64,000 bases of DNA, taken from assembly GCA_029001845.1 (NCBI GenBank), contig JAREWP010000022.1, positions 33,678 to 97,677 on the forward strand, read 5' to 3'. Below, one piece after another: positions 23,491 to 23,562 of this stretch. Numbering within the stretch: the stretch's first letter is position 1; each line of letters starts with the position of its first letter. The DNA is from Candidatus Magnetocorallium paracelense. Its GTDB lineage: Bacteria > Nitrospirota > Thermodesulfovibrionia > Thermodesulfovibrionales > Magnetobacteriaceae. Made by a program: the position numbers and the translations under genes. Under the pieces are notes generated by a model. That model was not told the origin of the DNA. It ran no database searches and was given only the letters and a program-made list of their open reading frames with translations.

Positions 23491-23506
23491 TGGCAGCAAA
23501 CTTGCA
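23491..23506 (+). promoter_or_regulatory. candidate sigma-54 (-24/-12) promoter
   Basis: tggcagcaaacttgca matches TGGCAC-N5-TTGCA. The GG (23492-93) and GC (23504-05) have the canonical spacing. It points toward the gene starting at 24001. Confidence 0.55.
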
Positions 23507-23562
23507 CAGACAGACAGACAGACAGACAGACAGACAGACAGACAGACAGACAGACAGACAGA
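23507..23562. repeat. (CAGA)14 tetranucleotide microsatellite
   Basis: 14 perfect tandem CAGA units counted directly. It begins immediately after the -12 element of the candidate sigma-54 promoter. Confidence 0.98.

Follow-up and report, generated by a model that had tools for sequence, protein, structure and literature searches.

A slippery CAGA repeat in a short leader reading frame as a probable switch of a surface-protein gene in Candidatus Magnetocorallium paracelense

Introduction

Phase variation driven by simple sequence repeats (SSRs) is textbook biology in host-adapted pathogens, and among the classical tetranucleotide contingency genes of Haemophilus influenzae, lgtC for instance carries 5'-GACA repeats in its coding region. 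The form that acts through a leader peptide is, to our knowledge, known only from Streptococcus gallolyticus. Here we describe a (CAGA)14 tract in a 64,000-nucleotide stretch of the genome of Candidatus Magnetocorallium paracelense (the window; C55:33678-97677 of a 6.0-Mb, 41% GC assembly). The tract directly follows a sigma-54 promoter-like block and lies upstream of a gene encoding a tail-fibre-like protein. The slippery repeat probably resets the frame of a short leader open reading frame (ORF) and in this way switches the downstream surface-protein gene.

In the pil1 and pil3 loci of S. gallolyticus, a (GCAGA)n repeat within a leader peptide sets the distance between the leader stop codon and a terminator and thereby switches pilus transcription (Danne et al. 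2014, PMC3894217). Alleles that are in frame stop 39-49 bp before the terminator and give low expression, whereas out-of-frame alleles stop at or inside the terminator, where ribosomes destabilize the stem-loop and expression is high, as demonstrated experimentally (PMC3894217). The CAGA locus resembles pil1/pil3 (PMC3894217) in that a leader ORF with a Shine-Dalgarno (SD) sequence and ATG holds the slippery repeat and precedes a surface-structure gene. In both, unit changes that are out of frame shift the stop from far upstream to a position beside or within a hairpin, and the units themselves are similar (GCAGA versus CAGA). Moreover, most of the relatives of the module found in other genomes have the pil1 order of leader ORF, 30-60 nt, intrinsic terminator and gene. 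The CAGA module differs in that its unit has 4 rather than 5 nt, it occurs in Gram-negative environmental lineages in 2-8 copies per genome, it precedes genes for secreted proteins or sensor kinases, and its start block mimics a sigma-54 promoter. The C55 copy also lacks a canonical terminator, and its long frame ends at the hairpin of a selfish element (the long frames of its paralogues end at the downstream ribosome-binding site, RBS). Note that the pil1/pil3 switch was established by experiment, whereas the CAGA module is known here from sequence alone.

The tetranucleotide contingency genes of H. influenzae (SSR survey, PMC2651432) have the same unit in another register, and there too the repeat sets the frame soon after the start codon. 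In contrast to these genes, the ORF that contains the CAGA tract is a separate short leader and not the structural gene, and the organisms that carry the module are free-living and uncultured rather than host-adapted pathogens. Repeats can also act from the 5' untranslated region, as described for the heptamer of H. influenzae hmw1A/hmw2A (PMC12721329) and the (AGAT)n of Moraxella catarrhalis uspA2 (cited in PMC4679880). In both cases a surface-protein gene is separated from its promoter by an SSR, the length of which acts through the leader RNA, much as an earlier note on the present DNA had proposed. However, the hmw and uspA2 tracts are untranslated and follow sigma-70 promoters, whereas here an SD sequence and ATG read into the tract. 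Finally, the locus shares several properties with sigma-54 promoters, including the PEP-CTERM box (PMC1569441): a GG-N10-GC core, long leaders before single secreted-protein genes, and a genome encoding rpoN plus many activators. Unlike those promoters it has a purine rather than a pyrimidine at -27 and R rather than Y at -21, and the paper describing the PEP-CTERM box (Haft 2006, PMC1569441) describes no repeat.

The CAGA tract lies within a leader ORF

The tract occupies positions 23506-23562 of the plus strand. TRF returned a tandem repeat of period 4 with 14.2 copies and 100% matches, a perfect (ACAG/CAGA)14.25 run that is the longest tetranucleotide tract of the genome. Only six tetranucleotide tracts of at least four units are present in the 6.0-Mb genome and the three longest are all CAGA. 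The sequence tggcagcaaacttgca stands at 23491-23506 and the repeat begins immediately after it, giving the order ...AAAGGGGACAATCGATGGCAGCAAACTTGCA(CAGA)14ATTACCTGCCTTAA.... A motif scan and the sequence itself identified these positions (23491-23506, plus strand; TGGCAGCAAACTTGCA) as a sigma-54 -24/-12-like block that is, at the same time, codons 1-6 of the leader ORF. The ORF opens with the ATG at 23490, placed 6 nt downstream of the SD-like purine block AAAGGGGA (23476-23483, plus strand), and in its present frame runs from 23490 to 23576 on the plus strand, with the stop TAA (23574-23576) inside a conserved CCTTAA. The 14 units of the present C55 state lead into this short frame, with a predicted 28-aa peptide, MAANLH(RQTD)4RQNYLP, as product.

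The earlier note had held that changes in repeat length would spare any reading frame. This is contradicted by the position of the tract inside the ORF at 23490-23576 with its SD-like block and ATG. Its description of a perfect tetranucleotide repeat abutting the block was borne out by the TRF result, and its proposal of a slipped-strand contingency locus is supported in that the tract anatomy fits and homologous loci differ in unit number. The sigma-54 core has the spacing given in the note (GG and GC are 10 nt apart), and the block reads TGGCAG-N5-TTGCA, with one mismatch to TGGCAC-N5-TTGCW. Taken by itself such a match is at chance level, one being found against 1.36 expected from shuffles of the 64-kb window. 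The combination of the block with a CAGA tract is far beyond chance. A long perfect tract of a short unit together with its placement in an ORF supports the assignment of the locus as a putative slipped-strand contingency element.

Sister loci in the same genome

All of the CAGA tracts of at least six units in this genome (3/3) have AAAGGGGA-N7-RTGGC-N7-TTGCA directly in front. The tracts have 14 (C55), 11 (C28) and 6 (C33) units, and each is followed, 184-438 nt further downstream, by a gene encoding a signal-peptide protein, the C55 leader being the 438-nt one. The proteins encoded downstream are a 408-aa tail-fibre-like protein (C55), an 863-aa repeat protein (C28) and a 292-aa LamG_3 protein (C33). 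Because the same arrangement is seen at all three loci, the C55 tract and block are one copy of a repeated design. A fourth paralogue (C16, ~15025-15200, minus strand) has a tract that has shrunk to ~2.5 units and has lost the start codon (ATGGCAG to GAGGCGG). It shares with C55 the end and junction of a miniature inverted-repeat transposable element (MITE)-like repeat, an identical promoter-like site, an identical AAAGGGGA and the tail, with 81% identity, and this leader copy precedes a paralogous tail-fibre-like gene. The C16 paralogue can thus be regarded as a putative natural 'dead switch' control.

Tract length varies beyond these own paralogues (14, 11, 6 and ~2.5 units), since homologous loci have from 4 to 22 or more units. 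In one orthologous pair with flanks that are 96-98% identical, the tracts have 6.75 and 3.75 units. An exact protein look-up found the same locus in no other assembly and an exact flank pattern found the same flank in no metagenome contig. A looser metagenome pattern retrieved nothing but a single unrelated copy of >24 units that sits at the end of a contig.

The module in other genomes

The pattern TGGC-N7-TTGCA-N0-2-(GACA)3 was scanned against 185,579 species genomes (one genome per species) and matched 70 stretches outside this genome, which with the three own loci form the pattern-selected set (n=73). The matches were mostly in metagenome-assembled genomes (MAGs) labelled Desulfuromonadales/Geobacter, Nitrospirae/Thermodesulfovibrionia, Nitrospinota or 'Deltaproteobacteria', with single matches labelled Schekmanbacteria, Omnitrophota, WOR-3 and others; a genome can contribute several stretches. 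The bias of the pattern was removed by collecting every (GACA)4-or-longer run in 25 matching genomes (69 runs, 1-8 per genome), and in this unbiased set the block and start were scored at 71 loci.

Among the pattern-scan loci with enough flank the nearest downstream ORF was co-oriented in 47/48 cases and the nearest upstream ORF in only 30/53, indicating that the module is a cis-acting 5' element that starts a transcription unit. Given this orientation bias, an independent trans-acting small RNA is unlikely as the main role, although terminator-bearing relatives could produce one. An Rfam search of 22800-24200 and eight related loci returned only sub-threshold noise and no RNA family. Most relatives have a strong intrinsic terminator 30-60 nt past the tract and before the gene. 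The strict pattern was not found in relatives of the same family or order, and only two module copies turned up among the genomes of 60 relatives. This rarity makes the module patchy and is consistent with horizontal spread.

Conservation around the start of the ORF is strong. The base preceding TGGC is A or G in 68/73 pattern-selected loci, which gives ATG or GTG, and the start was kept in 52 of the 54 unbiased loci that scored at least 9/10 on the sigma-54 core (as read from the score table). Positions -14 to -9 from TGGC are purine- and G-rich family-wide, ~7 nt upstream of the start, and an SD sequence and start occur together with the block in 47/71 unbiased loci. The first codons also carry a coding signature. 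Of 70 unique blocks, 29 have Ile as codon 4 (ATC 13, ATA 9, ATT 7) versus ATG in 2, and stops at codons 3-4 occur in frame in 1/140 cases versus 13/280 in the other frames. Six loci keep the in-frame SD and ATG without the -24 and/or -12 element, for example L111, L114 and L125, in which the full conserved tail and terminator are present. At three loci in which the ATG has become CGG, an in-frame ATG with a strong SD lies seven codons upstream.

Several variants of the module were seen. In the Geobacter-type copies (L104-L129 and relatives) the block is accompanied by a conserved TATAnT box, which precedes the SD by 20-30 nt. They also have a UCUGU element complementary to the repeat, and behind the repeat CUCCUCCUGACAA...UUCUGAUUGAU, TGA in all three frames and then the terminator CCGGCGUUGCGG...CCGUGCGCCGG. 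These copies precede very large sensor kinases, the N-termini of which look CheB/CheR-like by eye only. At L011, L032 and L041 the frame of the tract continues directly into the long ORF that follows.

The frames behind the tract are laid out non-randomly

Any frame of (CAGA)n encodes stop-free RQTD repeats and hence the tract only sets the frame that is entered behind it. At C55 the three frames end 11, 37 and 294 nt after the tract. The first is that of the present 14 units. The second, which ends with the TAA at 23600-23602 (plus strand; frame analysis), would be used with 15, 12 or 18 units, whereas 13, 16 or 10 units would lead into the long frame of 98 codons (23563-23859, plus strand; stop TAA 23857-23859). 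As judged from the peptide and the sequence, the C55 long frame contains no internal ATG, GTG or TTG and therefore can be read only by ribosomes coming from the tract. When the lengths of the long frames were compared with dinucleotide shuffles, the 294 nt of C55 were matched in 17/5000 shuffles (p = 0.003), the 189 nt of C28 in 324/5000 and the 254 nt of C33 in 48/5000.

Each of the own loci has one early stop in the conserved CCTTAA (+10 to +13) plus one unusually long frame. The long frame of C28 ends with a TAG that overlaps the ATG of the 863-aa protein gene, that of C33 with a TAA 1 nt upstream of the LamG gene's GAGGAGG, and that of C55 at the 3' foot of a CACGAAG hairpin in the leader. 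The C55 short-frame stops at 23574 and 23600 lie ~200 and ~170 nt before this hairpin. In the terminator-bearing relatives other than the Geobacter type, two of the frames typically stop ~32-35 nt and ~12-17 nt before the terminator and the third is open through it. A frame open through the terminator was found in 30/33 sequence clusters against 22.2 expected from shuffled spacers (p ~6e-4). In the Geobacter type each of the three frames meets a conserved TGA ahead of the terminator, at distances of 47, 19 and 15 nt. Thus, the frames behind the tract are laid out non-randomly.

A proposed leader frame switch

The ORF, the conservation of its start, the layout of the frames and the length variability among homologues can be read directly from the sequences compared, and we hold with moderate confidence that the leader ORF built around the CAGA tract is translated and that its frame acts as a switch on the downstream gene. 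In this mechanism RNA would be made from a sigma-70-like site upstream and the leader would be translated from the SD-like AAAGGGGA and the ATG at 23490, the sigma-54-like block serving as codons 1-6. Whenever strand slippage added or removed a 4-nt unit, ribosomes would be directed into another of the three frames behind the tract. The long frame (13 or 16 units) would keep the leader translated, which would open structure, prevent premature termination and polarity and allow coupling, so that the downstream gene would be ON. The short frames would leave the gene low or OFF, if the effect has the direction that we infer. The outcome would be a heritable, reversible and stochastic switch. Whereas in most relatives the leader ORF would act on the terminator, in the present genome it would bring ribosomes as far as the RBS of the downstream gene or let them pass the hairpin in the leader.

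Several observations weigh against this mechanism. C55, C28 and C33 lack the canonical terminator found in most relatives (C28 and C33 lack any), and the C55 hairpin is an inserted, selfish-looking element with its T-run 10 nt beyond the GC core. The block is conserved at synonymous sites, with A at the third position of the GCA codon in 64/73 loci and the Leu codon TTG or CTG and never another, which shows that peptide constraint alone is insufficient. The loci that retain SD and start without the complete sigma-54 core, six among 11, are only weakly above a 27% background. In a subtype of Nitrospirota type (L144, L145, L175 and L180, two of them in the order of the present genome) a strong SD is followed by a two-codon mini-ORF, ATG-GGR-TAA, and then by CTGGCAT-N5-YTGCA-(CAGA)n and a terminator, with no start codon reading into the tract. 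Moreover, a convincing sigma-70-like promoter upstream of the SD is present only at C55 and C16. The best -10 at C28 would start RNA after the GTG, as read from the sequence, and at C33 the SD follows only ~25 nt after a terminator-like hairpin.

The missing canonical terminator would also be expected if the C55 module had no function now, the copy being in decay after horizontal spread of the element and the gene at 24001 being driven by a nearer promoter. Its 438-nt leader is indeed broken by two kinds of selfish repeats, and C16 (2.5 units, ATG lost) shows that decay can occur. However, the tract is an uninterrupted perfect run of 14 units, the SD, ATG and block are intact, the 98-codon frame has stayed open (p = 0.003) and the same layout is present at two more loci. 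Loss of function at C55 thus seems very improbable to us.

Possible sigma-54 role of the start block

A TGGCA-N6-TTGCA score of at least 9/10 was found at 54/71 unbiased loci, as compared with 0.3% of control positions, and the variation follows the known -12 hierarchy in that only the first T varies. Since GG-N10-GC is conserved even at synonymous positions, sigma-54 may bind the block, either alone or in addition to the function of the block in the leader ORF, and such binding is a live rival to a purely coding role.

In the simplest version the block would be a working sigma-54 promoter with its start ~11 nt into the tract, so that the RNA would lead with (CAGA)n and the tract would be untranslated. 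Repeat length may then tune the 5' leader (through stability, protein binding or termination), and terminator-bearing relatives may yield a small RNA. Besides the conserved core and its synonymous positions, this version is favored by the gene content of the genome, which encodes one Sigma54_DBD gene (rpoN) plus ~25 strong Sigma54_activat hits, by the block being the sole promoter-like element whose geometry does not differ between the three own loci, and by the CTGGCAT subtype in which no start codon is present. The flanks of the block argue otherwise. The other intergenic sigma-54-like sites of the genome that lie upstream of co-oriented genes have C or T before TGGC (-27) in 20/23 cases and are mostly cTGGCAT-N5-TTGCT, whereas the three CAGA-linked blocks have A, A and G at -27 and read TGGCAG, TGGCAA and TGGCGA with TTGCA. 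In a flank test against the genome's own sites (Y at -27, TGGCAY, mostly TTGCT), the CAGA-linked blocks do not fit, and the purine at -27 is the base that makes the start codon in 68/73 loci. Nor would a sigma-54 promoter by itself require an SD-like block or the codon signature at codons 3-4, and the non-random layout of the frames would serve no purpose. Loci such as L111, L114 and L125 have the full tail and terminator without a -24 or -12 element, and the match alone is, as noted above, at chance level in the window. The space expected to hold an enhancer is taken up by the multicopy MITE-like repeat at C55 and by the end of the upstream gene at C28 and C33, with the terminator of that gene within 25-55 nt. 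An alignment of the three upstream regions gave no shared motif beyond AAAGGGGA. We consider a sigma-54 promoter with an untranslated tract unlikely as the whole explanation.

Both roles could be combined in a dual module, in which a sigma-70-type promoter would produce the frame-switchable leader and the sigma-54 site would either yield, in response to a specific signal, a second, untranslated transcript led by the repeat, or retain sigma-54 holoenzyme as a roadblock gating the transcript from upstream. The two sets of features are independently non-random and occur together in 47/71 unbiased loci, the conservation of synonymous sites points to a nucleic-acid signal superimposed on the coding function, and the Geobacter-type copies have their TATAnT box besides the block. 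The deviations of the flanks from the genome's own sigma-54 sites lower the expectation of binding, however, no conserved enhancer was found in the regions upstream of the three own loci, and two promoters would have to fit into the very short intergenic space at C28 and C33. Furthermore, we know of no precedent in which a functional -24 element contains a start codon. The dual module is therefore a possible but doubtful reading, which we rate a little above sigma-54 control of an untranslated tract, and the leader frame switch remains the explanation that we favor.

Two other sigma-54-related candidates were rejected. The block might be the target of another protein carrying a sigma-54 DNA-binding domain, but the genome has rpoN only. 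The PEP-CTERM box/PrsK-PrsR regulon does not apply, as the 408-aa protein has no NCBIfam hit and a 930-aa protein has no PEP-CTERM family (Pfam); the nearby regulator scores 349.8 bits against the TIGR02915 cut-off of 502.6 and hence is not a PrsR equivalog.

Implications

The logic of the S. gallolyticus switch is here seen as a conserved multicopy module of uncultured free-living anaerobes of several phyla, placed before genes for secreted proteins or large sensor kinases. If the frame switch operates as proposed, bet-hedging by a slippery leader ORF would be a general regulatory device in sediments and groundwater, and the conserved start block would be an easy genomic marker for such switches. 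The locus also calls for caution in promoter prediction, in that a near-perfect sigma-54 match can equal codons 1-6 of a small ORF. If sigma-54 does bind, a promoter overlapping a start codon in this way would be a regulatory arrangement of a new kind.

A more speculative suggestion, which we put forward only tentatively, is that of a 'hypermutable start cassette', portable and spread horizontally, with the SD and ATG of the module built into a functional sigma-54 -24/-12 site. Such a 90-nt element would have two outputs, a frame-switchable leader and either a signal-dependent untranslated RNA led by (CAGA)n or a sigma-54 roadblock. In Nitrospirota, Desulfuromonadota, Nitrospinota and neighbouring groundwater lineages, surface proteins and sensor kinases would then be under stochastic and sensory control at once.

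Surroundings of the locus

The region upstream of the leader ORF contains a ~115-bp MITE-like interspersed repeat (23338-23453) that is rich in GGGGTGAGGGG / TCCCCTCAAGGGGAGA hairpins and is present in dozens of copies genome-wide; a blastn search of the genome with 23260-23489 as query returned 183 hits, of which many are 90-98% identical over ~115 nt. The repeat occupies the expected sigma-54 enhancer region and its 3' end provides a -35-like TTGAAA. This hexamer is part of the putative sigma-70-type site at 23443-23470 (plus strand; TTGAAA-16-TATAGT with a TG before the -10), which scored 10/12 in a consensus scan, a match to consensus only. RNA made from this site would begin inside the purine block or shortly before it. 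Further upstream a perfect 19-bp inverted repeat (TGTAGGTAAAACACCTACA / TGTAGGTGTTTTACCTACA) followed by a T-run, at 23151-23197, looks like a terminator-type hairpin at the upstream edge of a gene-poor stretch.

The CACGAAG inverted-repeat hairpin (23774-23871, plus strand) is the sole strong structure in the C55 leader, with a predicted folding energy of -41.5 kcal/mol and a T-run at 23866-23871. It is a copy of a genome-wide element with 22 partial copies, and a terminator-like call (23831-23847) falls within it. The composite palindrome described in the earlier note was confirmed: nested arms are present at 23774-23816/23829-23871 and 23715-23729/23916-23930, and the structure belongs to the CACGAAG hairpin family. 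Copies of the CACGAAG array are also found at 25242-25267 and 25710-25735, where they flank a gene for a 123-aa PDDEXK_3 protein (25312-25683) in the loop; the copy in the C55 leader is free of cargo.

The tail-fibre-like gene reported at 24001 is likewise real. It runs from 24001 to 25227 on the plus strand, has its own AGGAGG at 23987-23992 and encodes 408 aa with an N-terminal signal/anchor and weak hits to phage tail-fibre PHROG families. Sequestration of its RBS by the leader was rejected as a candidate mechanism, since the best duplex (-12 kcal/mol) is no better than those of shuffles (338/500 as good). The sigma-54 activator (30143-31867, minus strand) and kinase (31848-34853, minus strand) to which the earlier note drew attention do exist, but a special link to the cassette does not hold up. 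Both are generic, falling below every NCBIfam equivalog cut-off, and are two of the ~25 activators in the genome. No activator was found on the contigs of the C28 and C33 loci and thus the activator/kinase neighbourhood is not conserved.

Other repeats of the genome are of different kinds. Heptanucleotide tandem arrays of at least three units number 45, for example (TTGACGA)13 and (GATTGAC)11, with sites at C3:59306-59396, C18:26461-26544 and C2:126166-126242; several of the arrays break contigs (the ends of C60, C100 and C102). These arrays resemble the heptamer repeats of Beggiatoaceae, cyanobacteria and Bacteroidetes (PMC4679880). An (ACAG)4 run at C77:39233-39248 is a short coding run inside a gene for an RRM-type RNA-binding protein, with ...TDRQTG... 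as its translation, and probably has no relation to the CAGA module. The only long trinucleotide SSR of the genome is a perfect (TCT)12 at C52:22923-22958.

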